From NCBI GenBank assembly GCA_002454045.1, contig DKID01000004.1, positions 6,259 through 70,258 of the forward strand: 64,000 nucleotides of DNA. Direction: 5' to 3'. The notes below the pieces were generated by a model. It saw only the letters and a list, made by a program, of their open reading frames with translations, was not told the origin of the DNA and searched no databases. Numbering within the stretch: the stretch's first letter is position 1; each line of letters opens with the position of its first letter. Origin of the DNA: Nitrospina sp. UBA6727 (lineage in GTDB: Bacteria > Nitrospinota > Nitrospinia > Nitrospinales > VA-1). The position numbers were made by a program, and so were the translations under genes. This document shows, piece after piece, positions 13,794 to 62,647 of the stretch.

Positions 13794-13840
13794 TTATTGA
13801 AAACTTTGAAATCGCCAACGCGGGATTTATAAAACGCGCC

Positions 13841-47051: not shown

Positions 47052-47825
47052 TTATCGTTTCAGAATGCTCTGCGAAAAATAGCGGGCGGGGATGTCGATG
47101 TCAAATTCAATGTTGTCAAACTTGTAAACCGTTCGAGTATTTTCCTTAAGCATATCGCGAAAAATCATGGTGCGGGGAAACAAACGGTCGCCGATTTTTT
47201 CGTAATCCTCGAACAGGACTCTCTTCAAAAGTTTTCCGCTTTTAGCAAAACGTTCTTCTTTGAGGACGATGTTCTCCCCCTGATTGATCCATACCTGGCG
47301 AGTCTGGTAAGTCGTTTTTTTATCCCGGGCGAGCAAATTCAAAATGGCGCAACGAACGCCCGCGAAATCTTCGAAGCCCTGCGCAGAAAAAGTTGCGCGA
47401 TAAGAGTGGCTCAACTTGTGGTCTTCCATCATGTCTTCGTAAGACAAATCACTTCCCAACATTGACTGTCTGAGCAGATGGCCGGCGATCAGTATTTTCC
47501 TGTCGGTGCGCGGAGTGTACATCCAAAGTTTGTCGCCAATCTTGAGCATCTTCGTTCCCTTTTCGCGCGCCGGCGATTTGTAATAACTATACGAACGCGT
47601 GAAACCTTCCATCCACGAATCCTGGGTCAGCGTGCGTGTTTTTCGTCCGTTGTCAATGATGAGTCGGCCCGAAACAAATTTTGTTTCCGCCCAAAGATTT
47701 TCGTCCACCAACTCTAAAAGTTTTTGCGCGCTTATTTCTTCCGTAGCGCCAAGGCTTACAAAATAAAAAAAGAGTGACGGGAAAATCCCGGCGGCGAAAG
47801 TAATTTTATTTTTTACAGCCATCAT
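47052..47825 (-). CDS. LolA-like outer-membrane lipoprotein-sorting family protein
   Basis: A signal peptide is present. The C-terminal ..VWINQGENIVLKEERFAKSGKLLKRVLFEDYEKIGDRLFPRTMIFRDMLKENTRTVYKF.. is the pattern I associate with the LolA_like (outer membrane lipoprotein-sorting) family. Confidence 0.75.
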   Translation of the reverse strand: MMAVKNKITFAAGIFPSLFFYFVSLGATEEISAQKLLELVDENLWAETKFVSGRLIIDNGRKTRTLTQDSWMEGFTRSYSYYKSPAREKGTKMLKIGDKLWMYTPRTDRKILIAGHLLRQSMLGSDLSYEDMMEDHKLSHSYRATFSAQGFEDFAGVRCAILNLLARDKKTTYQTRQVWINQGENIVLKEERFAKSGKLLKRVLFEDYEKIGDRLFPRTMIFRDMLKENTRTVYKFDNIEFDIDIPARYFSQSILKR

Positions 47826-47830
47826 AATTT

Positions 47831-49132
47831 TTAACCCGCTTCCAGTTCGCGGAACAAGTTGGCTTCCGAACGTTTGAAAATTGCCAGGCTGGCGACAAGG
47901 GTTCCGGCGACACTGGCGAAAACGCCGGGCACGATACCCTGCACGACGGCGCCCGCCGTGAGTCTTGCGCGGACGACATCGTTGATCATTACGCCCGACT
48001 GAGCGAAGTTGTCCCCCATGTTAATCCCCACTTCCTGCAAGAACAAAGTAAATCCCATCCCGAAAACGGCGCCCGCCGCCGCGCCGAAAATTCCCGTTAT
48101 CAATCCCTCTATCGCAAGGTTGAATATCAGTTTCCAATGCGACTCACCGAACGCAAGACGAAGTCCCATCTCGCCGTAGCGGTGAATGCCGTTTAGAATG
48201 CCGGCGTTCCACAGCACCAAAATCATAAGAAAAATAAAAATGCCGACAACAAACTTTTTGACGATCCAAAACTTATCCATGATTGCGCCGAAATTCTGCT
48301 GATCTCTGATGCTGAGGACGATGGGGAAATCATCCCCCGCCCAGTCTTGCGGCGAAGCCCGCACCCAATCCGCCAACTTTGTGTTCATACTTTTTTTGAC
48401 TTCTTCATAATAATCGAAACCCGCGCTAGGCGGGAAGTAGCCCAGCCAATCTGTAACCATGTTTTCCATATAAAAAGTATTCTGGGCATCGGCAAGATCA
48501 ATCAGCACCATTTTTTTATCCATCGCGGCGACGCCGAACCGAACCAAACCTGCGATTTGATAATTGTCCGTCACCAGTCCGCCGTCGAAAGACTGACCGA
48601 TCAATGTCACCGACTCTCCAACCGCAACGTCGAGAACTTCCGCCAGTTGAATCCCCATCAACATTTCGTTGGATCCTTTGGGGAAGGTTCCCGCGATGAG
48701 CGAGGATTTTAGTCGGAGGCGTCGTATCTCGTTGGAGCGCGGCGATTTCAAATCCATCGCCATTCCCACCACCGGAGTTTGCGAGCGTGTTTCGCCCTGT
48801 TCATCGGGGACGTCCAAGATCGCCGCCCAACGAATTCTCGGCGACCAATCCATGTTCGGCGCAGAGTGCTTCGTCAACCAGTCGCGGATTTCCCGTTGGT
48901 TGGTTAGAGCGCGATCCATCGGGCGCAAATGTTCCTCCTCGTAATAAAGCCGATTTACCAAACGCAAATGTCCCGAGTCGAAACTGGCGGTCATGTCGAT
49001 CATGCCCATGAAAACTCCCTCCATGAATCCCACCAAGGAAATGACCAAGGCGACGCCGACCGCCACGACGGTGAACGGAAATATAAATCGTGATTTGTCG
49101 CGGAACAATCCGCGGAACCAAAAACCAATCAA
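47831..49132 (-). CDS. FtsX/MacB-type ABC permease (LolC/E-like), copy 2
   Basis: It has four TM segments, a large periplasmic loop and a C-terminal FtsX domain. Its TTG start overlaps the upstream TGA stop as TTGA. Confidence 0.85.
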   Translation of the reverse strand: MIGFWFRGLFRDKSRFIFPFTVVAVGVALVISLVGFMEGVFMGMIDMTASFDSGHLRLVNRLYYEEEHLRPMDRALTNQREIRDWLTKHSAPNMDWSPRIRWAAILDVPDEQGETRSQTPVVGMAMDLKSPRSNEIRRLRLKSSLIAGTFPKGSNEMLMGIQLAEVLDVAVGESVTLIGQSFDGGLVTDNYQIAGLVRFGVAAMDKKMVLIDLADAQNTFYMENMVTDWLGYFPPSAGFDYYEEVKKSMNTKLADWVRASPQDWAGDDFPIVLSIRDQQNFGAIMDKFWIVKKFVVGIFIFLMILVLWNAGILNGIHRYGEMGLRLAFGESHWKLIFNLAIEGLITGIFGAAAGAVFGMGFTLFLQEVGINMGDNFAQSGVMINDVVRARLTAGAVVQGIVPGVFASVAGTLVASLAIFKRSEANLFRELEAG

Positions 49133-50301
49133 GTGATCGCCTTTCCCCGCAAAGCCAAAGCGGGATCCATCCGCGCAATTTTCTTCACCAACGCCCAGGC
49201 GGAAACGATGACTAAAACTAGAACGATGACGACGGAGACTAAAATTTCCCGCGGCTGATAATCGGGATAGATCGTCTCCCGAACTGGGAACGAAGCTTCG
49301 CTCAAATGCGTCACGTCAATCCCGACTCCCTGAAACCAAACGAAAAAAGGAACGCCAAGAATCGCCGCCAGCGCCAAAGCCCACAACGCAGCGATTGCGC
49401 CTTCCAACATAAATATTTTGACGACGCGGCGGGCGTCCATACCCAAAGCCATCAAGGTTCCGATTTCTTTTTGCCTCTTGAAAATATTTAGGACTTGCGT
49501 GTTGAACACACTGGTGCAGACCAAAACCATCAACACTCCCCAAAGAATTTTGGAATTGATTCGGTCCTGATTTAGCAGGGCGAGAAGATCTGCCATGAGT
49601 ACTTCTATTCCGTGAAACTCAAATCCAGGCACCGCGCCCAAATACTCGCGAACCGCTACCCAACTCACTTCGCCGTCACGGCCGGTCATGGAACGCAAAT
49701 GATCCAGCCGCAACCAAACTACGCCGGCGTCAATCCGCGGATTAACGAAGTCGCCCACGTCCACGATTAAAATATCGCGGGCATCGACGGCGCCGCCTTT
49801 GTCGCGCCATTTCAAAACCACCGTGTCGCCTTTTTTCAAACGTGCTTTGTTCGCCATCTTGACACCCACCACCGCGGGAATTATTTCCGGCGCCGACTTG
49901 CCCGAAAAAGATTTCAATCCCGCCAACGGTAAATGAAGAAGAGACTGCTGCATCGCGATTCCCCGCAACTGGACTGGGAATAATCGGCGGCCAGGAAAAA
50001 GTTGTCCTTGCTGGACCAACACCTCCGCTTTGTTTCTTGCCGAAAGATTTTTCAACACTTCGGGCACGGGCGCCGTGATGTCTTCCCATTTTGTCGGCGT
50101 GAGAATGTCAAACCCGGGCGCTCGATAATGACCGCCGCCAACATCCGTCGACACCAAATTCCGCGTGGCTTGGGCTTGGAATCCATTCAACAAGGACAGC
50201 ATGAAAATGATAGCGATGATTGCCAGCGCCGTTATCAGCACATTCAGAAAAGCCCGCAGACCTTGACGGCGGAAATTTTTGCTCGCGATATTCCAGTTCA
50301 A
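49129..50301 (-). CDS. FtsX/MacB-type ABC permease (LolC/E-like), copy 1
   Basis: NWNIASKNFRRQGLRAFLNVLITALAI.. and a C-terminal FtsX domain are present. TTG 50301 overlaps the ATPase TGA stop as TTGA, so I prefer it over the track start 50337. Confidence 0.85.
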   Translation of the reverse strand: MNWNIASKNFRRQGLRAFLNVLITALAIIAIIFMLSLLNGFQAQATRNLVSTDVGGGHYRAPGFDILTPTKWEDITAPVPEVLKNLSARNKAEVLVQQGQLFPGRRLFPVQLRGIAMQQSLLHLPLAGLKSFSGKSAPEIIPAVVGVKMANKARLKKGDTVVLKWRDKGGAVDARDILIVDVGDFVNPRIDAGVVWLRLDHLRSMTGRDGEVSWVAVREYLGAVPGFEFHGIEVLMADLLALLNQDRINSKILWGVLMVLVCTSVFNTQVLNIFKRQKEIGTLMALGMDARRVVKIFMLEGAIAALWALALAAILGVPFFVWFQGVGIDVTHLSEASFPVRETIYPDYQPREILVSVVIVLVLVIVSAWALVKKIARMDPALALRGKAIT

Positions 50302-51008
50302 GTTTCTATCTCCGCGCCGTCGCGGCGTTTGTCCCAACTCACCTTGCCGTCTTCCAGCCGAACTTCCCGTCGGATATAACGAGTTACTTTTTCGTCGTGA
50401 GTGGAAAAAATCACCGCCGCTTTGTATTCGCGATTGAGTTCCCGCATCAGTTCTAAAATCTGTAGCGAGTTCTCCGAATCGAGATTGGCAGTCGGCTCAT
50501 CGGCGAGAATGAGCAGAGGGTCTTTGACCAATGCCCGGGCTATCGCCACCCTTTGACATTGTCCGCCCGACAACTGTGCCGGTTTTTTGCTGATGTGCTC
50601 CGTCAAACCTACTTTGGCGACCATGCTCTCAACCCGTTCGCGGACGCAACTTTCTTTCCGTCCATTCAAGATTAACGGGAAGAGAATATTTTCATAAACC
50701 GAGTAAACCGGTAGCAGATTAAAAGTTTGGAAAATGAAACCAATGTTTTCCCTGCGATACGCCGCCAACTGGCTCCGCCCCATGTTTCCCAAACTGGCTC
50801 CATTGAAAAAAACTTCGCCGGTGGTTGGGCGGTCTAATCCTCCGATTAAATTCAACAGAGTAGTTTTCCCGGAACCGGAAGGTCCGACGAATGACATGAA
50901 CGCGCCCTCGCCCACCGCCATGCTGACGTCGTTCAGGGCGGTGAAGTTTTCTTCCCCAACGCGATAAACTTTTGAGACTCGTTCAAGCGTGATCAAAGTT
51001 TCATTCAT
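50298..51008 (-). CDS. ABC transporter ATP-binding protein (LolD/MacB-ATPase family)
   Basis: Walker A GPSGSGKTT, Q-loop, LSGGQCQRVAIARAL and Walker B LILADEPT are present. Confidence 0.95.
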   Translation of the reverse strand: MNETLITLERVSKVYRVGEENFTALNDVSMAVGEGAFMSFVGPSGSGKTTLLNLIGGLDRPTTGEVFFNGASLGNMGRSQLAAYRRENIGFIFQTFNLLPVYSVYENILFPLILNGRKESCVRERVESMVAKVGLTEHISKKPAQLSGGQCQRVAIARALVKDPLLILADEPTANLDSENSLQILELMRELNREYKAAVIFSTHDEKVTRYIRREVRLEDGKVSWDKRRDGAEIET

Positions 51009-51020
51009 CCCGCGATATTC

Positions 51021-52268
51021 CTAAAAATAATTCACCAGCGTTAAACCTAATGAAGATTCCGTCCCGTTGAAGCGATCCGTTTTGTGAAACAAACGCCCGT
51101 CTTTTTTTCCCGACTTCAAACTGCCGCCTACCTGCCCGTGAAGATAGAGAAACAAAGCGTCGGTCAGCGCGTATTCAATTTGCGGGACGAGACGAAAACT
51201 TTTATCGCGCAAATCATAAAATCCGAACAGTTGCCACTGAATATCAATTCCCACCGGCTGGTCGAGAGTAATCCCGATTTGCTGAAAGGTTCGCCGCTTC
51301 CCCGCGTCGGCGGGGTCGACATCGTCGGAACCGAAATTTTTTTGTCGGGTGGTGAGGAAATATTCCGCCAAAACATGCAAACCTTCACCGATGGCAAAAG
51401 TATAATCCGCCCCGAAAACCGTGTCGAATTGAATCGGTTTAGAAGGCTTCGTTGCTATGTCCAAACGGCTTTCGTGCCAAAAGCCAAATCTTTTTTCCCC
51501 CTTCAAATGATAGCCGACCTGCACCATCTCATGATTGAAACCCGGCAAATCATCCAAGTCGGATTTCGGATGATACTGAAACACCGCGCCCGTTTCGACA
51601 CCGCCGACCAGCATCTCGCCGCGCATTCCAAAAATCCAGGCGTTACCTTTTTTCGCCGGAAGTAGCCAGCCTTCAACAAGAGACGTCGCGGACAAAAAAT
51701 GGGTGGCGCGCACTCCGTCAACGCCTCGGGTTTCCAGGACGACACCGGCGACATTGCGTGTATCAAAAAATCCTAGCGGGCGAAATATCGTTGCGGAACC
51801 AAAAATAATTTTTTGTCGTCCGCCCCTGATTTTGAATTTTTCGTTATCCAAGCGGAGCCATGCCCGGAAAAAATCCACATCCGTTCCCGAGCGAAGTCCC
51901 GATTGCACGCTGGGACCATCCGCCTGTTTCGCATCGGCGGATAATTCATAATCAAGAACCCAGCCGTCTTTTTCGATCAAGCCACCCAGCACGCCCAGTC
52001 GCAACTCTAACTCGCTATCAAAATTTTTATGGGAAGGCGGGCTGTCAACGAGGTTGCGGCCCATCTTTAACCTGCCTTCAAAATCCACATCAAGCGCCCA
52101 TGAAGTAGAGTCGGGCAAAAGCAAAAACGCTAGCAGAAGCAAAAACGCTAGCAGAAGCAAAAACTTTGGGAGCTTCTTTTTCAATTTACACGGTTGGGTT
52201 TGAGTAGGAGGAAAATTGTTCGGCGCTAGACACTCGCGCGGCGAAGTGAGTTTTTGGAGTCGCCGCAA
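51021..52268 (-). CDS. Predicted outer-membrane beta-barrel protein heading the Lol-like ABC operon
   Basis: It has alternating amphipathic beta-strand patterns throughout and a C-terminal ..LGLTLVNYF (aromatic terminus). The signal-peptide-like core is KFLLLLAFLLLLAFLLLPDSTSWA. The start is uncertain: TTG 52268 or in-frame TTG 52184, which gives MKKKLPKF... Confidence 0.6.
   Translation of the reverse strand: MRRLQKLTSPRECLAPNNFPPTQTQPCKLKKKLPKFLLLLAFLLLLAFLLLPDSTSWALDVDFEGRLKMGRNLVDSPPSHKNFDSELELRLGVLGGLIEKDGWVLDYELSADAKQADGPSVQSGLRSGTDVDFFRAWLRLDNEKFKIRGGRQKIIFGSATIFRPLGFFDTRNVAGVVLETRGVDGVRATHFLSATSLVEGWLLPAKKGNAWIFGMRGEMLVGGVETGAVFQYHPKSDLDDLPGFNHEMVQVGYHLKGEKRFGFWHESRLDIATKPSKPIQFDTVFGADYTFAIGEGLHVLAEYFLTTRQKNFGSDDVDPADAGKRRTFQQIGITLDQPVGIDIQWQLFGFYDLRDKSFRLVPQIEYALTDALFLYLHGQVGGSLKSGKKDGRLFHKTDRFNGTESSLGLTLVNYF
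52121..52164. repeat. Perfect 18-bp tandem repeat (2.4 copies) inside the signal-peptide region of the beta-barrel gene
   Basis: The unit gcaaaaacgctagcagaa occurs at 52121-52138 and 52139-52156, with a partial copy at 52157-52164. It encodes LLLLAF-LLLLAF on the minus strand. Confidence 0.9.
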
Positions 52269-52355: not shown

Positions 52356-52841
52356 TCAAAGCATTTTTTTAATATGCGACACCAATTGATTAGCACTGAC
52401 GGCCGGAGCCCGCGCGTTCAAAATACCCTTTTGGTCGATGATTAAAACGGTGGGCATGTCCCGTTGCGAGTAAGCCTGATAAACATTCTTCGTCGGGTCA
52501 ATCAAATAAGGGAACCGTGTATTTTCTGGAAACTTGCTTAGATACCTCGCGACGGCTTCTCGAGAATCTCCGTTGGTGTTGATCCCCAATATCGCCACTT
52601 GCTCCTCGCTCAACTGGTCTCTCACTTTATTAAATTCCATAGCCTGCTTCATGCACGGAACACAAATATGGAACATGCCGATTAAAACCACCTTGCCCTT
52701 AAAGTCCGACAACGCCACCTGTTTTCCATCCATGGACTGCAAAGAAAATTTGGGAGCTTGCTCGCCCGGTGAAGGAGGTCCCGCAAAAGTTGGGACGACC
52801 GCTAAAATCAGGAAGGCTAACGACAGAAATATTTTTCGCAT
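52356..52841 (-). CDS. TlpA/ResA-like periplasmic thiol:disulfide oxidoreductase
   Basis: The leader is MRKIFLSLAFLILAVVPTFA. The redoxin fold carries a CVPC active site (..GMFHICVPCMKQ..). ATG 52841 with ACGGAG RBS is preferred over the track start 52919. Confidence 0.85.
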   Translation of the reverse strand: MRKIFLSLAFLILAVVPTFAGPPSPGEQAPKFSLQSMDGKQVALSDFKGKVVLIGMFHICVPCMKQAMEFNKVRDQLSEEQVAILGINTNGDSREAVARYLSKFPENTRFPYLIDPTKNVYQAYSQRDMPTVLIIDQKGILNARAPAVSANQLVSHIKKML

Positions 52842-53196
52842 GACGCACTCCGTTTTATGAAAACATTTTATCAGAAAATCCGCTCTTAGAAAGAGAGCAA
52901 CTTTTACCATTGAGTCCATCTTAAATCAGAGCAAACTAATTTGAAAGAGATTTCAAAGACACGGGAAAAGCAACGTCCGTCGGCTGAAACTCTCCCTTGA
53001 CTTGTCACTGATTTTATACTAAAAGCGGGGGCAATCCGTTGACTCTCCTAGGCGTTGCACTGCGATGCGGGCTTTGATTTTAAGATAATAGTTGTCGTCT
53101 CGAAGCACCACATTCTTTGCGGTACGTCCCTCGGAATATCCTTTTTTCATCGCGTCAGGTTACAGCAGGCAGTCAAATTTATAAAAGGTTTTGAGT

Positions 53197-54054
53197 ATGA
53201 AAGAAGCATCGCTCTTCCCCAAAGTGTTGTTCGCTCTGGCCAGTTTGTTGGCTCTCTCCCTTCCAGCTTTTGCCTACCAGGAAATCAATGTGCAAAACGG
53301 AGGGACAATACAAGGGAAAACCAAAATGTTCGGCGGGATGCCGTTTCCCCGTCACTACCATTTGGTTTTATTCCCCAACATCGACATGTGTGCGGAAGTA
53401 GATACCGACGACGAAATGAACCGAGTCCTTGATGACTTCAAAGTTTCGCGGGACGGGGGACTCAAAGATGTGGTCGTCGCTCTGGAACATGTCGAAGCCG
53501 GGAAACCGTTCAACAAAGAACCGATAATGATCACTTCTGAAAACTGTAAATTTTTTCCAGACGTTAACGTGATTCGACAAGGAGAAACTTTTAAGATCGA
53601 CAATCTCGACGCGGTCATGCACAACAGCCAGGTCTATCAAAAAGAAAGAGGGAAAATCCTGCTAAACATTCCCATCCCCGCCGAGGAAGTTTCGGACGGG
53701 ACAGTCAATTTCGAAAAAAATTATAAGATCATGCAGATGATTTGCGGGATGCACGAGTTTATGCAGACCTGGGGGTTGAGGGTGCAAAATCCCTATTACT
53801 TCATAACCGAACTAGATGGAAACTTCCGCATCGGAGATGTTCCGCCGGGAGAATATATCGTTACCGCCTGGCACTATTTGATGAAGCCGCAGAAAAGAAA
53901 AATTAAAATCATCGGCGGCGAAACAATTAACCTGAATTTCGATTTCGATGGCGACAAGGTTGTCCGGCCTGTTTACGAAACCATCAAATCTGGAAGAATC
54001 AAAAAAGACGCGGTGTACCCGGGAACTGCAAAAGGAAAAGAATTGGGACGCTAG
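53197..54054 (+). CDS. Secreted amicyanin-like cupredoxin plus CarboxypepD_reg-like beta-sandwich protein (paralogue B)
   Basis: The leader is MKEASLFPKVLFALASLLALSLPAFA. Candidate type-1 Cu ligands are ..NLDAVMHN.. and CGMHEFM (C-x2-H-x2-M, nt 53743-53763). The C-terminal part is ..VQNPYYFITELDGNFRIGDVPPGEYIVTAWH.. Confidence 0.7.
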   Translation: MKEASLFPKVLFALASLLALSLPAFAYQEINVQNGGTIQGKTKMFGGMPFPRHYHLVLFPNIDMCAEVDTDDEMNRVLDDFKVSRDGGLKDVVVALEHVEAGKPFNKEPIMITSENCKFFPDVNVIRQGETFKIDNLDAVMHNSQVYQKERGKILLNIPIPAEEVSDGTVNFEKNYKIMQMICGMHEFMQTWGLRVQNPYYFITELDGNFRIGDVPPGEYIVTAWHYLMKPQKRKIKIIGGETINLNFDFDGDKVVRPVYETIKSGRIKKDAVYPGTAKGKELGR

Positions 54055-54055
54055 T

Positions 54056-55960
54056 TTGAAGCCATCGAAAAAACCCGGCACTCTCCAGCGGCTCGGTATA
54101 TTTCATCTGCCCATTTTATACACCGTGGCAATGTCCGCCGCCGCGTGGGGATTCCCCCCCCCTCCCCCCCCCGAAGACGTCCCCAAAACTTTCACCCTGA
54201 AAAATAAACAGGTCGCCCTTCATAACCTGAGCAATCCTTATGAAGATGACCCCGACGCCATTGCCGACGGCGGCGCCTTATACACAGCGCATTGTCTTTT
54301 CTGCCACGGTGATTTGCTCGACGGCAACGGTCTGTTCGGAAAAAGTTTTTTCCCGCCGCCCGCAGATTTTACCCGACGCGACTCCATCCTCTCTCGACCG
54401 CAGGCTTATACTTTCTGGCGCATCATGAAGGGAGGCAAAGGGCTTCCGGAAAAATACGAACCGTGGAACTCCGCCATGCCAGCGTGGGAAGAGGCGTTGA
54501 GCGCGAACGACGTTTGGAAAATCATCACCTATATTTATCAGACGACACGGCAACGGCGCGCCAAACCTGGGCAACAAGCACCGCCGTCGATGAAAAGAGG
54601 CAAGCAGATTTACTTGGAAAAATGCGCCAACTGTCACGGTGAAAAAGGAAAAGGCGATGGACCGTCCGCCGATTACTTCATGCCGCAACCGAGAAACCTG
54701 ACCAAGGGCCATATCAAAATTCGCTCCACTCCATTTGGGAAAATTCCGACCGACGCAGATTTATTCGACACCATCACCAACGGGATGCAAGGAACCACCA
54801 TGCCCGGCTGGAAACATCTCCCCGAAAATGACCGCAAGAGTCTGGTGATATACGTCAAGTCTTTGTCGCGAAAGTTTGCGAAGTTTGAGAAGAACGGCAA
54901 AACTCATAAGACCGTGAGGATAAACGCGGCGCCGACTTTGTCCCGCGAAAGTGTGGCGCGGGGGAAAAAAATGTTTATGGTTCATTGCTCCGGCTGCCAC
55001 GGCGTTGAAGGGCGCGGCGATGGAGCAACCACCCAACGCATCGTAGATTATTCGTCCAGCGCCATCTGGCCCAGAAACCTGCGCCAACCGTGGACCTTTC
55101 GCGGCGGCAGTTCCCGCAACGATATTTTCAAAACTCTGCGCACCGGTCTTTCCACCACCGCCATGCCTAAGTTTTCAACGAGAGTTTTCAACGACGAACA
55201 AATCTGGGACGTCGTCAACTTCGTCAGCACATTGTCCGCCGCCGCCGAGCCGAAACCGCAAACCCACATTCACGCCAAGAAAATTGCGGGGAAAATTTCA
55301 GACGACCGCGCCGCGTCCGTTTGGAAAAACGTTCAAGCCAACTACATTCCATTAGGAGGCCAACTGCAGACAAAACCGAAATCCTATTTTCCCACCGTCC
55401 AAAGTTTAACCGTGCAAGCGGTACACGACGGCGAAGAAATTGCACTTCACATCCATTGGGATGACCCGTCCCTCGACCCAGCACTAAAAGCGTTTGCGGC
55501 GGTTGCGGAATCTCCGCCGCCGCCTCTTCCCGATGACACCATGCGAAGAACGGACGAACCTTCGGAACCCGTCGTCCCCGAATACCCCGACGCCATCGCG
55601 GTACAATTTCCCGTTAATCTAGACACGCCGCGAAAACCTTATTTTCTTAATGGCGACGCCGACCATCCCGTGAACTTGTGGCGATGGACGACCGCCACCA
55701 ACGAAGCCGAAGAGATGAACGCGAACGGATTAGAAAATTGGCGCGCGCAAAAAGATTCAGCGGTTCGCGCCAAAGGTAATTTTCGGTTCGGGAAATATTC
55801 GCTGATTTTGAAACGCGCGCTGACGGGGGATGACGAAGACATTCAGTTTCAAATCGGCAGACCCATTCCCATCGCCTTCAACGTTTGGGACGGATACCAC
55901 GGCGAGACCGGCAACAAAAAATCCATCTCCAGTTGGTTCACCCTCCTGCTGGACGAGTAA
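54056..55960 (+). CDS. Tri-haem c-type cytochrome fused to a C-terminal EB_dh/DOMON-like (type-II DMSO-reductase gamma-subunit-like) domain
   Basis: Three CxxCH motifs are present (CLFCH, CANCH, CSGCH), each followed by an MPAW/MPGW/MPKF-type Met region. The C-terminal ~230 aa read ..DAIAVQFPV..PYFLNGD..PVNLWRW..ILKRAL..IPIAFNVWDGYHGETGNKKSISSW.., which resembles the ethylbenzene-dehydrogenase gamma family. The proposed start, TTG 54056, lies 1 nt after the upstream TAG stop and gives the leader KPSKKPGTLQRLGIFHLPILYTVAMSAAAWG. Confidence 0.8.
   Translation: MKPSKKPGTLQRLGIFHLPILYTVAMSAAAWGFPPPPPPEDVPKTFTLKNKQVALHNLSNPYEDDPDAIADGGALYTAHCLFCHGDLLDGNGLFGKSFFPPPADFTRRDSILSRPQAYTFWRIMKGGKGLPEKYEPWNSAMPAWEEALSANDVWKIITYIYQTTRQRRAKPGQQAPPSMKRGKQIYLEKCANCHGEKGKGDGPSADYFMPQPRNLTKGHIKIRSTPFGKIPTDADLFDTITNGMQGTTMPGWKHLPENDRKSLVIYVKSLSRKFAKFEKNGKTHKTVRINAAPTLSRESVARGKKMFMVHCSGCHGVEGRGDGATTQRIVDYSSSAIWPRNLRQPWTFRGGSSRNDIFKTLRTGLSTTAMPKFSTRVFNDEQIWDVVNFVSTLSAAAEPKPQTHIHAKKIAGKISDDRAASVWKNVQANYIPLGGQLQTKPKSYFPTVQSLTVQAVHDGEEIALHIHWDDPSLDPALKAFAAVAESPPPPLPDDTMRRTDEPSEPVVPEYPDAIAVQFPVNLDTPRKPYFLNGDADHPVNLWRWTTATNEAEEMNANGLENWRAQKDSAVRAKGNFRFGKYSLILKRALTGDDEDIQFQIGRPIPIAFNVWDGYHGETGNKKSISSWFTLLLDE
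54154..54172 (+). repeat. C9-T-C9 homopolymeric tracts inside the cytochrome gene (these encode PPPPPP)
   Basis: Counted directly: C x9 at 54154-54162, T at 54163, C x9 at 54164-54172. Confidence 0.95.
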
Positions 55961-56103
55961 CCGCCGGCGTGGCGACGACATGGGCGGGACAAAAAAACGA
56001 AGCCGCGCGAACAAGAGTTTGAGTTTCTGATTTTTTGGTACCGACTAAAGATACGAACTGCAACGCAGTGACTATTCCAAAACCAAAATTTTTGCGGGGT
56101 TTG

Positions 56104-56310
56104 CTAAGGCTGGTTATTGCTCGTGGAGGTGTCTGATAGTTCCTTTAGTTCGCCCCACAATAAATTAACCTCATCAGAAAGGCTGTCTACTGTTTCATTA
56201 ATTTTTCTTATATAGACAAAAATAACCAGTGCGGCGATAGTAGGTATCCCCACAGCAATCACCGCCATCAATATGGAAATAATTTGCAGGTAGATGTCGA
56301 GGTTCATCAT
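56104..56310 (-). CDS. Small single-TM hypothetical protein (68 aa), AT-rich
   Basis: MMNLDIYLQIISILMAVIAVGIPTIAALVIFVYI.. is followed by an acidic tail. Its start abuts the stop of the upstream 76-aa ORF. Confidence 0.4.
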   Translation of the reverse strand: MMNLDIYLQIISILMAVIAVGIPTIAALVIFVYIRKINETVDSLSDEVNLLWGELKELSDTSTSNNQP

Positions 56311-56541
56311 TTAGCCTCGCTGTCTTCGGGTAGGCCTTCCTCTTTCGGTTTGCTCTCTCTCCCATTTTAGGGCGGCGGCGATAGTTGTCGCGCTACCCAC
56401 TTTCGTTATGTGTCCGTCGTCCCCATACGTTTGTTGGTGTTCCTGTTCGCGCCTTTCGGGGTCATTGGTTATACCGGTATGAAGAATCTTATTTCCTTGC
56501 TTGAAGTGGTATTTGTAGGTGTCTCTTGACATAGTCGCCAC
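56311..56541 (-). CDS. Small GIY-YIG-like (URI-domain, COG2827-type) protein (76 aa)
   Basis: YKYHFKQGNKILHTGITNDPERREQEHQQ..KWEREQ follows the GIY..YIG..R..H..E spacing of mini GIY-YIG proteins. GAGGTG lies 6 nt upstream of the ATG. Confidence 0.5.
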   Translation of the reverse strand: MATMSRDTYKYHFKQGNKILHTGITNDPERREQEHQQTYGDDGHITKVGSATTIAAALKWEREQTERGRPTRRQRG

Positions 56542-56674
56542 CTCTTTTCATTGACTGGAAAAACAATTTAGCGTGTCAGATAACCGCACGTTTGTCAAGT
56601 GTTTTCACTATTGTAAAAGGTGTGTTGAGAGGCAAGGTCACGGCGTGACGGCGGCGTGGTAGCGGGTGGAAAAA

Positions 56675-56711
56675 CAGCACCGGGACTGGTGTCCCGGTGC
56701 TGTATTTTTTT
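56675..56711. terminator. Strong, potentially bidirectional rho-independent terminator
   Basis: A perfect 12-bp stem CAGCACCGGGAC / GTCCCGGTGCTG has a 4-nt loop (TGGT). It is flanked by AAAAA on the left and TATTTTTTT on the right. It lies ~110 nt downstream of the paralogue-C stop on the minus strand. Confidence 0.7.
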
Positions 56712-56822
56712 CGAGGATGCCTTGAATAAATGCGAGGTCTTATCTTGCGGCATTTTACGCGCCGCTTTATTGAACGGGCTAATGCCTTGCGCATTTTTTT
56801 ACGCGGTGCTCTTGAAAATTTT

Positions 56823-57635
56823 CTACTTGGCGGTCAGCGTGAAATTGGCTTTTGCCTCGCCATCACTGACTGTGATGTCCATCGTGGATTCGCCAACATA
56901 GGGTTGCCACGCGGTCACTTTGTACTTGCCGGCGGGAATCCCGTCAATTTTGAAGGCGCCGTCAGCACCTGTGAGGGCGTAGTAAGGATTCCACACGATG
57001 CGCGCGTCGGCTTCCATGAAGTTGTGTTGGTCGCATTGTAGAAAAAAATGTTTGTCTTTCTTTTTCTTGAACCGCGCAATATTTTTGGTGACGTCTGCGA
57101 CGTCGCCTTTGTTTGGCAACGGTTTGTTGAACAGTGTTTTGCGGCTCGCACCGGCTATCGAATACCCGTGCGGATTGTGGAGAATGTCGGGGTCATGGTT
57201 CACAATTTTCACTAGGCCGCCTGCTTTTTTCTCGGCTTTGGAAGGTTTGCGGATGACGCCCATTTTTTGTCTGATGTCGCATTTCTCGAAATCGAAAACC
57301 ATCTTGCCGCCGTCGCCCCAAGGCTTGCCGGATTCAATATTTTCGATGAAGACGACGGCGTCTTTCAACTTGCCGTCGGTGGCTGTGACTTTGACGCGGG
57401 GTCTTATCCCGCCTTCTTTGGTGTCGGGATGCGTGACGCAGAACTCAACGTTTTTGCCTTTGTTCAAGTCTTCCATGATGGGCGCCATCACTTTGCCTTT
57501 GACCATGACGGTGCCGCTGATGGAACCTGCGCCGGCGGAACTTTCTTTGTATTTATATTTCGCCGCAAAACTAGTGGAAACTGCCAACGCTATCGTCAGC
57601 GAAGCAACCACCGCACCTAAAACAATCTTCTTCAT
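56823..57635 (-). CDS. Secreted amicyanin-like cupredoxin plus CarboxypepD_reg-like beta-sandwich protein (paralogue C)
   Basis: ATG 57635 has an AGGAGG RBS. The leader is MKKIVLGAVVASLTIALAVSTSFA. Candidate Cu ligands are ..NHDPDILHN.. and CDQHNFM (nt 57015-57035). The C-terminal part is ..VWNPYYALTGADGAFKIDGIPAGKYKVTAWQ... It starts 59 nt downstream of the giant MCO. Confidence 0.7.
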   Translation of the reverse strand: MKKIVLGAVVASLTIALAVSTSFAAKYKYKESSAGAGSISGTVMVKGKVMAPIMEDLNKGKNVEFCVTHPDTKEGGIRPRVKVTATDGKLKDAVVFIENIESGKPWGDGGKMVFDFEKCDIRQKMGVIRKPSKAEKKAGGLVKIVNHDPDILHNPHGYSIAGASRKTLFNKPLPNKGDVADVTKNIARFKKKKDKHFFLQCDQHNFMEADARIVWNPYYALTGADGAFKIDGIPAGKYKVTAWQPYVGESTMDITVSDGEAKANFTLTAK

Positions 57636-57694
57636 TTCTTTTTTTCCTCCTAATAGAAATTCAAAAATACATCGCACACGTTCGTCTGTGCTTA

Positions 57695-60600
57695 TCACAT
57701 CGCCCGCTCATCGTCCTTGGTTCGGGAAGCGGATTTTTCTACTTCTTGCTGCGGCTGGGACGCAGTCTTCACGCCCTTCATCGTCGCTTTGCCCAACGGC
57801 AAAATGGAGCGGTCGCCTTCTGGCAACACTTTGAAATATCCCCATTGGCCTGCTTGCTGATACGGCGTTCTCGCGTTCAACCATAAGTAGGTGCCGGGAT
57901 TATTATAGGTTCCGCCGGCGGTGGTGTAGGCTTGAATATACTCGGCGGCGCCGAATTGCTCGGCGTCGATCATGTCGGAACCTTCTTGGTCCATGTGACG
58001 ACGCCACTGGTGACCGTCTAGATTGAACACTTGGTTCTGCTCGTTATGCGCGCCGAAAATGTTGATCATGATTCGGTCTCCGGCGTGGGCTTTCAACGTC
58101 GGTGTCGCCGGGTCGGAATCCGCCGCGACGCAAGCCGTGAACATATTGCCCAATTCGCAACCTTCATCTTCGCGATAGAGCCACGGCTCCAAGCGATAGT
58201 TGACGCCCGTCAAGCCCGCCACGTTTTGCAGGTAAGGCATGAAGGACGTACCGATGATGTTGTCCTCGTCTTGAAAATACAAAGCGAAGTCGCGGTAGTT
58301 ATCGATGTTCGCATTTTCGGGATACGACTTATCGATGATGACGTCGGCTTTCCAGGAATTGCCGAGCGAAATATCTTTCCCGGTCTCGGGGTCGCGATAC
58401 ACCGAACCGCGCGGGCCGATGATGATGCCGCCGTATAAACCGTCGCGGATGTTCGTCGTTAGGTTGCCGAAATCCCACAGCAACGCGCCGTTGATTTTGA
58501 ACCCGGGGTGCGCGTAGAACGTATAGTTTTTCGATTTGCCCGGCGCCACCGTTTGGTCGCCGCGGTTATTCCCCACGTTGATGCCTTGGGAATCTTTGGG
58601 GTCAAACGCGATGTTGTTCGCGTGGATGGACACCCTGCCTTCTTTCAGGCGGTTGGTCAATTTGATTTTGACGCAGTCGCCGATGTTGACGCGCAAGGTC
58701 AACGGATGCGGCATGTGTCCTTCTTCCGCCGCCTGCTTGACTTCGCCTTCCAGCGTAAAAATTTTCGCGCTGGCATTGGCAAGCAGAAGTTTGCGTTCAA
58801 AGTCAACTTCAATTTCATCTTCCGCGTTGGGATGAAACTTCAATGCTTTGTCGATGGCGATGACGCTGAATTTTTTAACCGGCGCACTTTTCGCGCACAA
58901 AGTCTTCTTAACTTTTTTCTTGAAGTCTTCGTTGCCGGGGAGAACCTGTAAATCTTTTTGCATCTCATCATGCACGCGGATAATCCCCCAACTCCCTTCG
59001 GACAACTTGGAAGTTCGCCCGTTATAGTACAGATAGTCGCCGGCCATTTGCTGGAAGCCGCCGGCTTTGGTGGGCAGGTCGTAGCGTTCGGCAATGCCGA
59101 CATGAATCGTGTTCGTCACGCGGGAGTCGCGGTCGTATCGTTCCGGCCGATAACCATGCCCCGACACCGCAAAAGTGTGGGTCTCGTTTTGCATGCCCGC
59201 CAAAAGTCGGAAGACGATGTTGTCGCCGACATAAGCCCTCAACATGGGCGTGGAGGGGTCGCCGTGTGTCTTGCTGTGGAACACTTTGGAGGCGTCTTTG
59301 TTGCTCGCAAGTCGCGACGCCAACGAGGCGGCTCTGAAATTAAAAGCGCCGCCGGTGGTGTGAGTCCCGCCGTTCAGCAGCGGGAAGGCGACTTCCAACA
59401 TGTCGGAGGGCATCTGAAAAGAAATCGACTGCCCCGCGGCGATGGCGTTCTCGCGCGTTAGTCCCGGCGGATTTCCCGCGGTCACCAACTGCGCGGTGTG
59501 CGGGACGGTGTCGTTCACTTGCGCCACCAATTCGCGGAAACTTCCTTGCGTGTTGTAGCCGACAATTTCGGTGCTGTGAATGTCGGCCACTGGGCCGCTG
59601 CGAATTTGCTTGCCGGTTTTCGGGTCGTGATAGGTGGACCCCCACGGTTCGGCAATCGTGGAGCCGATGCCGCCGTGTGGCCAAGTGGTCGCGCCGAAAG
59701 CGTGGTCGTGCCAAAACACTAAACCTAAATCGACGTCCACCCACCAGCGGTAACGCACATATTCAGTCGTGACAATCTGTCCTTTTTTGTGCGTGTGCGT
59801 CATTCCCTCGGTGAACTTAATTGTGTACTTGCCGTCTTTGGATGGACCTTTGTTCGGGTCGGGCGAGATGCTTTTAATCCAGCGGGCGTCTTTCCCGTTC
59901 GGGACTTCAATGCCGACGATGATGTCGGCGCCGACGTGGTAGGTGGGCGAATGTTCCGCCATCTGAATTTGGATTGTGTCGTCGCCGGGTTTCGTCGCCT
60001 TCAACAATTTGGCATTCATCGGCACCGGCATGCCGACGTGATGCCCGTCTTTCATTTTCTTGGTGAACTGTTTGTAAGACCGCATCGATTGGTCGTAGGA
60101 AAAACCGGTGATGACGCCGTCGGAGGCTTGATTGTCAAACTGGAAAAAGTGCGGATGAATGTTCACCTTGGACATTTGGAAGTTGGTGAAATCGTCGTCG
60201 TCCCATTCGCTGGACAACAACACGTCAACGCAGTCATACACGTTGGCGCGGATGACCAGCGGATAAGCCTTCTTCGGGTCGGCTTTCACCGCCGCCATAT
60301 CTTCATCGATGACGTAGATCAAACCGTATTTGTCGATGACCGGCGCGGTCTTCCCGACTTGCCCGGTAAGTTCAATCGGCGTGTTGATGAAATGCAGATT
60401 GTATTGTTTGCGCCCGGCGCCTTTCGGACAAAGGCTCCATCGCCCCTGCTCGCCCGGTTTTGCCGGCGCGCTACTTTCTATGTTCGCGGCGGAACGCCCG
60501 CTGCCGGATTCCGTCTTGGCGATGATCTCGTCGTCCGTCTGCAAATGGAATGGTTCCAGCCATGGCGCGCCGCCGTGATGACGGGCGAACGGAACGCGCT

Positions 60601-62647
60601 TGCCAAAATGCGGGGCTAGATGCGGCCACGCTAGTTTGCCGTGCTGGTCAAACTGGATCGGATGACGCTTGCCGGGATGCGGCGATTTGTACTTCGGCCA
60701 CTCGACCACCGTTTCCCGCTCGGACAAAACCCGATTGCCCTTCCAAGCGTAATCCCACACCGAGCCGTCATACGCCTTAATCTGTTTGATCGGGTCGTCG
60801 TGGTGACCGGGCTGCCCCTGCGGCGGGAGCATATACTTCACCCAATCTTTGATGTTGACCACGGGAATTTCTTTGCTCCAATCGCTTTTGCCTTTGCCGA
60901 CAATTTTGAATTTCTTGCCGAACCAATCCATCGTCTTGCCGACGAGTTTGTCGGACGATTGTCCATGCGGAATTCTCCCGGCACGGTCGGGCAGTTCTAG
61001 CAACGGACGCATGACGTCGGTGCTACCCGTCGGATAGTTGCCGTCTTGCAGGACGTTATACACCCGCCAATATCCCCACATCCCCGCGACATAATGATGC
61101 GCAACGTGGCAATGAAATAGGAAGTCGCCCGCCAAACGCTGACAAAGTCCGGAGCCGCATTCGGTTTCCAAATCCATCACTTCCGAGGGACCAATCACCT
61201 GCACGTCGACGCGGTCGGAAGTCGTCCGGATGACGGGATACTTCACGGGGCCGTCGTAACCCGCCGTGGTCAAGTTGAGCAACTGTTGCTTTTCGCGTTG
61301 CGGGGAACGTGTCCAGCGGATGGTTCCGCCGTGCGGATGGTGGGAATGGAACACCTCGCCGCCGCCGTGCACAAGGCGAAACTTGGCGGGGTCGCCTAAG
61401 TAGGAACGCGGAATCGTGGTCGGAGCGTCGCCGAAGGTGTAGGAGCTGTACGCCAGCGACTCGTCTTCAAAATGAAATTTCTTTTCCTGCACGGCGAGAT
61501 TATTGATGCCGAACGGCTCGGAGCGAAAGTTTAAGGCGCGCGCCGATGGACGGTATGCGTCCGTCTGCGGGTCGCGTTGCGGAATCATTTCGCCGTGGCG
61601 GTTGAGCGGACGAAATGATTCGTCGCCGACTTCGTGATACATCAGGGTAAATTCGCGGAAATCTTTGGCGTCGTCGTTGACGATCATCGCCATCCAACCG
61701 CTTTCCAGGGGACCGCCGGTCCACGGGTCTAGGTAGCGGGAACCGCGCGGCTCAACGATGAACGTCCCGATTAATCCCAGTGAGGAAGGGTCGCGGCCGG
61801 CGTGATTTTGGATCATGTGCCCGCCTTCCTGTTCGTCAATCGGAACATACCATTCGTATTCTTGCGTCTCGCCCGCCGCCACGATGGAGCCCGGCGTGGC
61901 CGCCGTGTTGGGCTGACCGGTGGAACTGATGATCATCGCGGAACCGTTTATCTGAAAACCGGCGTCTTCATCTTCCAACTGATTGGTGAATTTTACGCGG
62001 ACGCATTCTCCTTGATTGCCGCGGATGACCAAGGGTTGGATGGCGTCGCCTTGGAGTCCGTTGGAAACCGCGCCGGGGTCTAACCCGTCTTCACGCGCCG
62101 CCGCGTTCTTTTTTTCTTCGGCGCGAACTTTCTCGATGTCTTGTTCCAGAATGTACATGTAACCGGGATAATAATCGCCCCATTGGTTGAGGGTAATTTC
62201 CACGTTGATGGCGGCGACGTTATATTGTTTCGTGGGGATGTTGCTGGGACAGTGCGCGCCTCTGTACACTTTGGCGGCGGCGTCGGTGGGACCGAGGAGA
62301 TAACTTTGCCCTAACTGGTGAGCAGCCCATGAGTCGTTGAATCCCCCGCCCGTTGCGGCCGGGCTGGCGTGCTCTTTTAATTTGGATTTTAACTGGTCCA
62401 TAACTTTCATCATGGTGTTGTCCAGTTTTTCCTGATTGCCTTCCAGTCCCGACATCAAATCTTCATGCGCGAGTTGCTTCTCAAGTTTTTCCAACCACGC
62501 CGGTTTTTCCACCGCGGAGTTGGCGGAACCGTGACCGTCATGGTCCATCGAAACCGCGCCGACGGGGGCGCCGAATCCCAACGCCGAAAGCGAAAGAGTG
62601 ACCGCTAACGCACAAAAGTTTTTCCATCCTTTTTTGACACCAAACAT
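57695..62647 (-). CDS. Giant (1650 aa) secreted multicopper-oxidase-like protein built from three tandem MCO-like modules
   Basis: It has a Sec-type leader (..FCALAVTLSLSALGFGAPVGA) and a canonical T1/T3 motif HCHVAHHYVAGM (res 512-523, nt 61079-61114). Other motifs are HSHHPH (434-439), HPH (831-833) and WHDH (979-982). Module-opening and module-closing motifs each recur three times (see findings). Confidence 0.85.
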   Translation of the reverse strand: MFGVKKGWKNFCALAVTLSLSALGFGAPVGAVSMDHDGHGSANSAVEKPAWLEKLEKQLAHEDLMSGLEGNQEKLDNTMMKVMDQLKSKLKEHASPAATGGGFNDSWAAHQLGQSYLLGPTDAAAKVYRGAHCPSNIPTKQYNVAAINVEITLNQWGDYYPGYMYILEQDIEKVRAEEKKNAAAREDGLDPGAVSNGLQGDAIQPLVIRGNQGECVRVKFTNQLEDEDAGFQINGSAMIISSTGQPNTAATPGSIVAAGETQEYEWYVPIDEQEGGHMIQNHAGRDPSSLGLIGTFIVEPRGSRYLDPWTGGPLESGWMAMIVNDDAKDFREFTLMYHEVGDESFRPLNRHGEMIPQRDPQTDAYRPSARALNFRSEPFGINNLAVQEKKFHFEDESLAYSSYTFGDAPTTIPRSYLGDPAKFRLVHGGGEVFHSHHPHGGTIRWTRSPQREKQQLLNLTTAGYDGPVKYPVIRTTSDRVDVQVIGPSEVMDLETECGSGLCQRLAGDFLFHCHVAHHYVAGMWGYWRVYNVLQDGNYPTGSTDVMRPLLELPDRAGRIPHGQSSDKLVGKTMDWFGKKFKIVGKGKSDWSKEIPVVNIKDWVKYMLPPQGQPGHHDDPIKQIKAYDGSVWDYAWKGNRVLSERETVVEWPKYKSPHPGKRHPIQFDQHGKLAWPHLAPHFGKRVPFARHHGGAPWLEPFHLQTDDEIIAKTESGSGRSAANIESSAPAKPGEQGRWSLCPKGAGRKQYNLHFINTPIELTGQVGKTAPVIDKYGLIYVIDEDMAAVKADPKKAYPLVIRANVYDCVDVLLSSEWDDDDFTNFQMSKVNIHPHFFQFDNQASDGVITGFSYDQSMRSYKQFTKKMKDGHHVGMPVPMNAKLLKATKPGDDTIQIQMAEHSPTYHVGADIIVGIEVPNGKDARWIKSISPDPNKGPSKDGKYTIKFTEGMTHTHKKGQIVTTEYVRYRWWVDVDLGLVFWHDHAFGATTWPHGGIGSTIAEPWGSTYHDPKTGKQIRSGPVADIHSTEIVGYNTQGSFRELVAQVNDTVPHTAQLVTAGNPPGLTRENAIAAGQSISFQMPSDMLEVAFPLLNGGTHTTGGAFNFRAASLASRLASNKDASKVFHSKTHGDPSTPMLRAYVGDNIVFRLLAGMQNETHTFAVSGHGYRPERYDRDSRVTNTIHVGIAERYDLPTKAGGFQQMAGDYLYYNGRTSKLSEGSWGIIRVHDEMQKDLQVLPGNEDFKKKVKKTLCAKSAPVKKFSVIAIDKALKFHPNAEDEIEVDFERKLLLANASAKIFTLEGEVKQAAEEGHMPHPLTLRVNIGDCVKIKLTNRLKEGRVSIHANNIAFDPKDSQGINVGNNRGDQTVAPGKSKNYTFYAHPGFKINGALLWDFGNLTTNIRDGLYGGIIIGPRGSVYRDPETGKDISLGNSWKADVIIDKSYPENANIDNYRDFALYFQDEDNIIGTSFMPYLQNVAGLTGVNYRLEPWLYREDEGCELGNMFTACVAADSDPATPTLKAHAGDRIMINIFGAHNEQNQVFNLDGHQWRRHMDQEGSDMIDAEQFGAAEYIQAYTTAGGTYNNPGTYLWLNARTPYQQAGQWGYFKVLPEGDRSILPLGKATMKGVKTASQPQQEVEKSASRTKDDERAM

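Follow-up and report, generated by a model that had tools for sequence, protein, structure and literature searches.

A tri-haem cytochrome c–EB_dh fusion protein of Nitrospina sp. UBA6727 has asparagine at a canonical haem b ligand position and may act with a cupredoxin-like partner as a periplasmic electron relay

We analysed 64,000 nucleotides of Nitrospina sp. UBA6727 (assembly GCA_002454045.1, contig DKID01000004.1, positions 6,259 to 70,258 of the forward strand; hereafter the window, in whose coordinates all positions are given), which encode a 634-aa protein, hereafter the target, in which three class I cytochrome c domains are fused to a C-terminal EB_dh domain, i.e., the type of domain that carries haem b in EbdC of ethylbenzene dehydrogenase (EBDH) and in NxrC of nitrite oxidoreductase (NXR). 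The family has already been known since 2013 as 'alternative NxrC', and what is new is that the methionine ligand of haem b is always replaced: it is lost in every member of the alt_NxrC4 group, to which the target is assigned below, and the ligand pair is not conserved over the wider superfamily, so that the cofactor label needs experiment. In addition, the constant partner of the target is an amicyanin-like copper protein and not a molybdoenzyme, and its frequent neighbour is an MnxG-like multicopper oxidase. Our preferred reading, held with moderate confidence, is that the target would be a high-potential periplasmic electron relay working with this cupredoxin, and not the gamma subunit of an adjacent molybdoenzyme.

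The ligand positions were counted through phmmer alignments of the C-terminal domain to PDB sequences, in which EbdC (2ivf_C, E 7e-11, 44.4 bits) and the NxrC of Kuenenia (7b04_C, E 1e-9, 40.5 bits) were matched. Asn532 of the target aligns with Met108 of EbdC and Met155 of NxrC, so the canonical methionine ligand is absent, and Lys622 aligns with Lys201 and Lys305, respectively, so the canonical lysine position is kept. The ligand residue numbers of EbdC, which we take to be those of Kloer et al. 2006, agree with the alignment. Indeed, the haem b ligands of NxrC are Met155 and Lys305, as in EBDH (Chicano et al., PMC8387239), and the haem of EbdC is ligated by lysine and methionine (PMC8840923). 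A first-pass annotation of the window had pointed to F-L-N-G in place of the methionine-containing motif and to a retained lysine, and both observations hold in these alignments. It had also proposed that the domain may bind its cofactor in another manner or lack it altogether, which is consistent with the invariant Asn532; if a haem b does occupy the pocket, it must be ligated otherwise than by the Met/Lys pair, e.g., as a five-coordinate haem held by the lysine only.

The fold was examined on a predicted structure. An AlphaFold model of the target, built on 46 family members, reached a mean predicted local distance difference test (pLDDT) value of 75.5 and a predicted template modelling score (pTM) of 0.76, the EB_dh domain being mostly at pLDDT 80-95. 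When this model was compared with the PDB by Foldseek, the best matches were 2ivf_C (E 7e-14, template modelling (TM) score 0.79, normalised to the Foldseek target), 7b04_C (E 1e-12, TM 0.59-0.61) and the dihaem cytochrome 6h5l_B, and CBM9 modules came next. On this model, the domain is a beta-sandwich of the EbdC/NxrC type. The target shares with EbdC (2IVF C) and Kuenenia NxrC (7B04 C) the EB_dh fold, the PxF..G-D and K-x-x-S-x-W motifs and the lysine position, but differs from them in the asparagine, in that EB_dh makes up the last third of a cytochrome c with three haems, in an extra proline-rich insert of ~28 aa, and in that alpha and beta genes are not adjacent.

The substitution is fixed throughout the family. 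In a MAFFT alignment of the target with its 120 best homologues (down to 50% identity), Asn532 and Lys622 were invariant in 121/121 sequences, and the 9-mers KPYFLNGDA and KKSISSWFT were among the five most conserved in the EB_dh domain. Among orthologues from GTDB genomes, asparagine occupies the methionine position in all that could be scored, while the lysine position, scorable in 70, holds lysine in 65, methionine in 3 and arginine in 2, the non-lysine residues belonging to more divergent tri-haem orthologues. Since Asn532 is fixed and both ligand motifs are highly conserved, the substitution looks like a selected family character and not like decay. Over residues 405-634, a further alignment of 46 sequences (A1, down to ~49% identity) contained 40 invariant columns, and the mean column conservation of the EB_dh domain (0.66) was on par with that of the cytochrome domains.

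The wider superfamily gives a different picture of the same two columns. When HMMER was run exhaustively with only the EB_dh domain as query, 1085 cluster representatives were obtained at E <= 1e-3, and the ligand columns were scored in the best 150 of them after alignment to the family hidden Markov model; most of these 150 proteins measure 450-800 aa and carry two or three CXXCH motifs N-terminal to EB_dh. At the canonical methionine position we found Met in 38, Leu in 28, Phe in 20, Asn in 11, Gly in 10 and Tyr in 8, other residues being fewer, and at the canonical lysine position Arg in 47, Met in 24, Lys in 22, His in 12, Gly in 10 and Cys in 9, again with fewer of the others. The pairs encountered (representatives P0121-P0270) comprise Met/Met, Met/Arg, Met/Cys, Met/His, Leu/Arg, Phe/Arg, Gly/Arg, His/His and Asn/Lys, and the scaffold around the ligand columns (P-Y-F-x-x-G-D and x-S-x) is retained. 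Because both columns vary, the Met/Lys pair is the exception among cytochrome c–EB_dh fusions. This pattern suggests that several functionally distinct subfamilies stand under one Pfam label, and, judged from these alignments, 'haem b-binding' is an unsafe description for such fusions, as it is inherited from Pfam.

The architecture predicted by the first-pass annotation, three class I haem c units followed by a C-terminal EB_dh domain, was borne out by Pfam and by the CXXCH motifs. Three cytochrome c stretches were recognised (Cytochrome_CBB3, 5.9e-35; Cytochrom_C, 1.5e-32), with haem motifs CLFCH at residue 80, CANCH at 190 and CSGCH at 311, and EB_dh (PF09459) matched residues 420-623 over the full profile (1-236 of 236) with 76.8 bits against a cutoff of 33.3 (E 3.5e-21). 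The CXXCH and Met-Pro motifs of all three haem domains were invariant in alignment A1 (for domain 1: C80, C83, H84, M141 and P142 in all 46 sequences), and Met141, Met249 and Met370 are the presumed distal ligands on the basis of this alignment. The assignment to class I cytochromes c rests on the CXXCH motif with a distal methionine and on the match in sequence and structure to 6h5l_B. This chain, Kustc0457 (6H5L B; the partner of Kustc0458, a protein like hydroxylamine oxidoreductase), is, of the solved structures, the closest match to haem domains 2 and 3 (target residues 180-393, E 3.8e-39; 32% identity and TM 0.79 by Foldseek), but it has neither an EB_dh domain nor a third haem domain and partners an octahaem enzyme in anammox bacteria. 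Within EB_dh, the family-specific insert is visible as a jump of the EbdC alignment from query 474/chain 81 to query 510/chain 89; its proline-rich motif is conserved (0.83), the pLDDT is low at residues 495-501, and the insert may be a docking element.

The N-terminus deserves attention, as the choice of start codon decides on export. The target lies in one long open reading frame (53948-55960 on the forward strand), and its likely start is a TTG at 54056, directly after the stop of the upstream gene at 54054 (one base on). In contrast, the public gene call on the same DNA (GCA_002453875.1, contig DKHT01000032.1) starts at an ATG at 54131, i.e., at Met26, and gives 609 aa. We preferred 54056 because the Met26 start would delete the hydrophobic N-terminus, or export signal, that a c-type cytochrome needs, and because homologues of 629-651 aa match the 634-aa form over its whole length; thus the public start is probably mis-called. 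The N-terminus runs through a lysine-rich stretch and a hydrophobic helix to seven prolines; the helix was modelled at residues 17-29 with low pLDDT, and the region is poorly conserved in the family (0.36). In all, ~989 homologues were found, nearly all of them from Nitrospinota; the named ones are nearly all assigned to Nitrospina, Nitrospinaceae or Nitrospinota, and one, from Ca. Nitromaritima, bears the name 'Triheme cytochrome c'.

The upstream gene encodes a 287-aa protein that the first-pass annotation had described as a cupredoxin-like operon partner, and this description was strengthened by conserved copper ligands and by a profile match to amicyanin. Over 127 sequences, Cys67, Cys119, Asp140, His144, Cys185 and His188 are conserved, and Met191 in 125/127; Cys67 and Cys119 probably form a disulfide. 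A profile built on 18 diverse family members matched many amicyanin entries (E 1.2e-3 to 5e-3) over residues 18-104 of the 105 in amicyanin, with H-N ... C-x2-H-x2-M and all four copper ligands aligned, so that His144, Cys185, His188 and Met191 correspond to what we take to be His53, Cys92, His95 and Met98 of amicyanin. The partner shares this His-Asn ... Cys-x2-His-x2-Met pattern with amicyanin (E ~1e-3) but differs in having an extra N-terminal region with the two conserved cysteines and a C-terminal sandwich, the last 80 residues matching NOMO/CarboxypepD_reg sandwiches. In Pfam, the 287-aa protein had no cupredoxin match and only weak C-terminal matches, and phmmer against the PDB returned chance matches only. 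Its AlphaFold model reached a pLDDT of 53, with residues 104-199 below 50, the underlying alignment being shallow with homologues all at least 79% identical. On sequence grounds, 'cupredoxin-like' is nevertheless supported.

Two paralogues of this partner occur in the window. The 291-aa protein encoded beside the MnxG-like oxidase is 31% identical to the 287-aa protein (BLASTP, E 1e-24) and keeps the copper ligands. A third cupredoxin-sandwich protein (39123-40547, forward strand) has N-terminal tetratricopeptide repeats and the motif C-N-L-H-P-F-I, in which the axial methionine is replaced by isoleucine; its gene adjoins that of a polyprenyl synthetase.

The gene order around the target was compared over 71 non-redundant Nitrospinota loci, the denominators being the loci with enough flank. 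The 287-aa gene lies directly upstream on the same strand in 58/58 loci, a redoxin with the CVPC motif lies divergently upstream in 49/54, and the MnxG-like oxidase lies convergently downstream within 10 kb in 21/26 and within 3 kb in 16/26. In a deep-branching Nitrospinia metagenome-assembled genome (MAG), only the pair of cupredoxin and tri-haem genes is kept, in unrelated surroundings. As the pair is kept where all other neighbours differ, the invariant unit consists of the cupredoxin-like gene and the tri-haem gene. In one deep-branching Nitrospinia locus (L071, 12242-13831), a metal transporter of the ABC-3 type (Znu/Mnt-type), and not a multicopper oxidase, follows the pair. The 1650-aa oxidase of the window matches MnxG (9bxa_A, E 5.4e-94) and contains an HCH motif and several HxH motifs. 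Note that many relatives carry two giant oxidases, the second of which is then accompanied by a cytochrome c of ~426 aa and not by a cupredoxin (loci L002, L004, L041 and L056). The redoxin may mature the neighbouring haem or copper proteins.

Molybdoenzyme genes were looked for on three scales. No molybdopterin or NxrA/B-like open reading frame occurs in the window, no molybdoenzyme gene occurs within 10 kb on either side of the target in the source contig, and across ~78 loci the target never adjoins an nxrA/B-like gene. The statement of the first-pass annotation that alpha and beta genes are missing nearby thus stands, and the possibility that a matching alpha/beta pair lies shortly beyond the window's edge was rejected for 10 kb on either side of the target. 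The 10 kb beyond the target in the source contig adds only HtrA, 3'-phosphoadenosine 5'-phosphosulfate reductase and an outer-membrane beta-barrel protein, and the window also encodes an HtrA protease.

Part of this family has been described in Nitrospina gracilis. According to the retrieved passages of Lücker et al. 2013 (PMC3578206), this species has four NxrC and four 'alternative NxrC' proteins, one of which, alt_NxrC4 (NITGRv1_620040 of strain 3/211), has 642 aa with three haem c and a 'DMSO reductase-like haem b domain'. The same passages predict alt_NxrC2 and alt_NxrC4 to be soluble periplasmic carriers, and they place alt_NxrC4 in a conserved gene cluster with a multicopper oxidase, NITGRv1_620037, a 1634-aa 'possible manganese oxidase' three locus tags away. 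The target falls under the definition of alternative NxrC used there, i.e., one to three CXXCH motifs and an EB_dh-type domain in one polypeptide of a Nitrospinota, Nitrospirota or anammox genome. It resembles the published description of alt_NxrC4 in length (634 vs 642 aa), in the three haem c with EB_dh, in the predicted periplasmic location, in a ~1640-aa oxidase a few genes off and in the phylum, and differs in the species, as it comes from an uncultured Nitrospinaceae MAG. We infer that the target is the alt_NxrC4 orthologue, an assignment made from architecture and neighbourhood as tabulated in that paper rather than from sequence comparison. As described in the same passages, both nxrAB operons of N. 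gracilis have their own nxrC, so that no alpha/beta pair would be waiting for the target; nitrite oxidisers typically have 'orphan' EB_dh paralogues. The Asn-for-Met substitution is not mentioned in the retrieved passages of this paper.

Homologues at 33-37% identity in MAGs of Nitrospirota, 'Deltaproteobacteria' and Pseudomonadota shed light on the origin of the fusion. They lie in clusters with two cupredoxin-sandwich genes, a bd-like oxidase subunit I, cytochromes c of 383 and 294 aa and a dihaem cytochrome c–EB_dh gene, in this order. This is the conserved 'bd-like oxidase' cluster discussed for Nitrospira, Nitrospina and anammox bacteria, whose dihaem cytochrome c–EB_dh proteins are called 'alternative NxrC', in the retrieved parts of PMC3578206, PMC8026999 and PMC6606698. 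The likeness to the target extends over haem domains 2-3 and EB_dh and to the same cupredoxin-sandwich family; by contrast, the bd-like clusters have the first cytochrome c as a gene of its own and the oxidase adjacent, whereas in the target this cytochrome is fused and no bd-like oxidase is nearby. The ligand pairs of these homologues are R/M, M/K, M/R, D/K and N/K. Haem domain 1 of the target is closest to the separate 294-aa cytochrome c (43% identity, E 5.5e-18), and the rest aligns to the dihaem–EB_dh protein (37% over 483 aa, E 1e-87). The target thus probably arose, as far as these alignments tell, by fusion of adjacent monohaem cytochrome c and dihaem cytochrome c–EB_dh genes and became detached from the bd-like oxidase; fusion is preferred to fission because the fused form is narrowly distributed. 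In one proteobacterial bd-like locus (L078), two tandem paralogues of the cytochrome c peroxidase type (12152-14485) follow the dihaem–EB_dh gene, and an arsenite-oxidase-like large subunit (Rieske_3 and Molybdopterin) is encoded further on.

In the preferred reading, which is a proposal from sequence, model and synteny for the target and its orthologues, the target would be exported by the Sec route and transfer electrons in the periplasm of an uncultured nitrite oxidiser of the Nitrospinaceae. Its three class I cytochrome c domains would form a haem wire, for which His/Met ligation and a high potential are expected since each CXXCH domain has a conserved Met-Pro distal motif, and this wire would be fused to an EB_dh sandwich with a strongly conserved, non-canonical Asn/Lys pocket. 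The protein would be made together with the amicyanin-like copper protein encoded one base upstream, both forming a fixed two-gene module that may pass high-potential electrons in the periplasm from a donor (ultimately nitrite via NXR, where electrons would enter at ~+430 mV) to an oxygen-reducing enzyme. The candidate acceptors are the adjacent MnxG-like multicopper oxidase and a bd-like oxidase encoded elsewhere. Such potentials have a precedent in Kustd1711, a related dihaem cytochrome of an nxr cluster with haem potentials of ~+350 mV, in a cluster that also encodes blue copper proteins (PMC11791136).

Several points weigh against this proposal. The donor and the acceptor of the module are deduced from gene order and nitrite-oxidiser physiology; the target gene faces that of the multicopper oxidase in convergent orientation and hence is not co-transcribed with it; 5/26 loci with enough flank have no oxidase within 10 kb; and the link to bd-like oxidases comes from distant homologues (33-37% identity). 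In addition, the cupredoxin fold is assigned from a marginal profile E-value (~1e-3) and the ligand alignment, the AlphaFold model having failed, and the occurrence of methionine (3) or arginine (2) at the lysine position weakens the case for this lysine as an essential haem ligand. A bolder version of the proposal, to which we attach little credence, is that the Asn/Lys pocket holds a lysine-ligated haem b (NrfA-type) with an open or weak sixth site, or another cofactor, and that the module links the respiratory chain to the MnxG-like oxidase as a respiratory enzyme; if true, this oxidase would be a low-oxygen copper terminal oxidase or an energy-conserving metal oxidase, and the module would be more than a passive wire.

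Other explanations start from the same evidence. The homology of the EB_dh domain in sequence and fold to Kuenenia NxrC and EbdC invites the idea of an alternative gamma subunit of NXR, in which EB_dh would dock on NxrB, either replacing NxrC or beside it, and electrons would run from the FS4 iron-sulfur cluster through EB_dh and the protein's own c haems to a cytochrome c or an oxidase, as proposed for alt_NxrC of N. gracilis (retrieved passages of PMC3578206) and discussed for Nitrospira (PMC6606698). We regard this as unlikely, since the methionine ligand of the haem that NxrB feeds is asparagine in every orthologue, nxrC is already present in both nxrAB operons in the published passages on N. 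gracilis, nxrAB is not adjacent in ~78 loci while the cupredoxin gene always precedes the target, and the EB_dh domain is no nearer to NxrC than to EbdC (40.5 vs 44.4 bits). The EB_dh-like domain could also be haem-free, i.e., a binding or docking module like those of the CBM9/DOMON type that places the tri-haem wire on a partner or surface. The methionine is indeed gone in all orthologues, the lysine position holds methionine or arginine in some, many of the 150 superfamily representatives have non-ligating residues at the two positions, and, after EbdC and NxrC, the structure is matched next best by CBM9 modules; however, the sequence around both ligand positions is the best-conserved part of the domain, which suggests a specific ligand, the lysine is retained in 65/70 scorable orthologues, and no sugar-binding residues were identified in the domain, so that we consider this explanation possible but lean against it. 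That the domain is a decaying remnant serving as a mere linker, to which the loss of a canonical ligand could point, was rejected on conservation and is in our view almost certainly wrong, given the 40 invariant columns, the conservation of 0.66, the full-length Pfam match and the mostly confident model.

The MnxG-like oxidase raises a further alternative, namely that the cupredoxins and the tri-haem protein are its dedicated redox partners and join its type-1 copper to the respiratory chain, with electrons either fed in (a copper-based terminal oxidase) or carried off. Consistent with this, the oxidase with its own cupredoxin lies convergently within 10 kb in 21/26 loci, with orthologues down to ~46% identity, and the two cupredoxins are paralogous, one for each transcription unit. 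Known MnxG, on the other hand, works with the small subunits MnxE and MnxF and is not known to need a cytochrome. The juxtaposition recurs in N. gracilis, and the oxidase is part of a conserved cluster in Nitrospira defluvii (both in the retrieved passages of PMC3578206); moreover, the Nitrospinae MnxG, of putative function, ranks second in abundance among the Nitrospinae oxidoreductases of Pacific metaproteomes (PMC9477243). Nevertheless, convergent genes do not form a single operon, several lineages have 4-9 kb between the genes or no oxidase within 10 kb, deep-branching Nitrospinia retain the cupredoxin/cytochrome pair only, and the distant homologues pair with bd-like oxidases without a multicopper oxidase. 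An exclusive partnership of this kind therefore seems doubtful to us, and the electron relay working with the cupredoxin is retained as the preferred reading.

In the ocean, nitrite is oxidised mainly by Nitrospinae, for which the route of electrons from NXR to oxygen is a standing question, all the more so where the lineage has no canonical haem-copper oxidase (PMC8026999). Among the established candidates for this path are the alt_NxrC proteins, which have been labelled 'haem b-binding' purely by Pfam match. Our results do not overturn current views; they provide testable partners and an annotation correction for the marine nitrogen cycle.

Table. Positions in the window of the target, its domains and the genes discussed with it.
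Feature	Position	Strand	Remarks
Target gene	54056..55960	+	Tri-haem cytochrome c fused to EB_dh, alt_NxrC4 type; 634 aa
Signal peptide or membrane anchor, then poly-proline linker	54056..54190	+	MKPSKKPGTLQRLGIFHLPILYTVAMSAAAWG, then FPPPPPPEDVP; read from sequence
Cytochrome c domain 1	54221..54550	+	CLFCH 54293-54307; presumed distal Met141 (SAMPAW) 54476-54478; Pfam
Cytochrome c domain 2	54587..54871	+	CANCH 54623-54637; presumed distal Met249 (TTMPGW) 54800-54802; Pfam
Cytochrome c domain 3	54938..55240	+	CSGCH 54986-55000; presumed distal Met370 (TAMPKF) 55163-55165; Pfam
EB_dh (PF09459) beta-sandwich	55313..55924	+	Asn532 codon 55649-55651; Lys622 codon 55919-55921
Family-specific insert in EB_dh relative to EbdC	55478..55582	+	~28 aa, residues 475-509; conserved proline-rich SPPPPLPDD
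Upstream partner	53191..54054	+	287 aa; signal peptide, amicyanin-like type-1 copper domain, C-terminal CarboxypepD_reg/NOMO-like beta-sandwich
Thiol-disulfide oxidoreductase	52356..52919	-	AhpC/TSA-Redoxin fold, CVPC active site; Pfam; divergent from partner/target pair
Paralogue of the partner	56823..57698	-	291 aa; Cys222-x2-His-x2-Met; co-oriented with and immediately downstream of the multicopper oxidase
MnxG-like multicopper oxidase	57695..62647	-	1650 aa; convergent with the target; Pfam Cu-oxidase domains

The remaining observations concern the surroundings. The gap of 860 bp between the convergent units contains two small reverse-strand frames within 56104-56541, of 68 aa (hydrophobic) and 76 aa, both of which are publicly called genes, as well as a strong GC-rich hairpin of 13 bp with a T-run at 56674-56703; promoter-like sites in 52800-57000 were no commoner than in shuffled sequence. 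A conserved reverse-strand block at 47052-52268 has genes for a LolA-like protein, for an ABC ATPase with two permeases of the FtsX/MacB type, and for a 415-aa product without Pfam match; in many Nitrospinota loci this block remains in synteny with the genes of the redoxin, the cupredoxin and the cytochrome. A second multicopper oxidase (676 aa), an ordinary three-domain enzyme in which each of the three Cu-oxidase Pfam domains is strongly matched, is encoded 8 kb upstream of the target (44126-46156, forward strand). The larger genes of the window have housekeeping functions (gltB, leuA, recQ, ubiD, uvrA, the ATP synthase operon, metG and argS). Further upstream, a 463-aa frame (31298-32689, forward strand) combines full TatD_DNase (3-256) and Radical_SAM (277-440) domains, which would be an unusual fusion if the frame is real, and a dihaem cytochrome c peroxidase (CCP_MauG) gene lies at 33278-34279 on the reverse strand.

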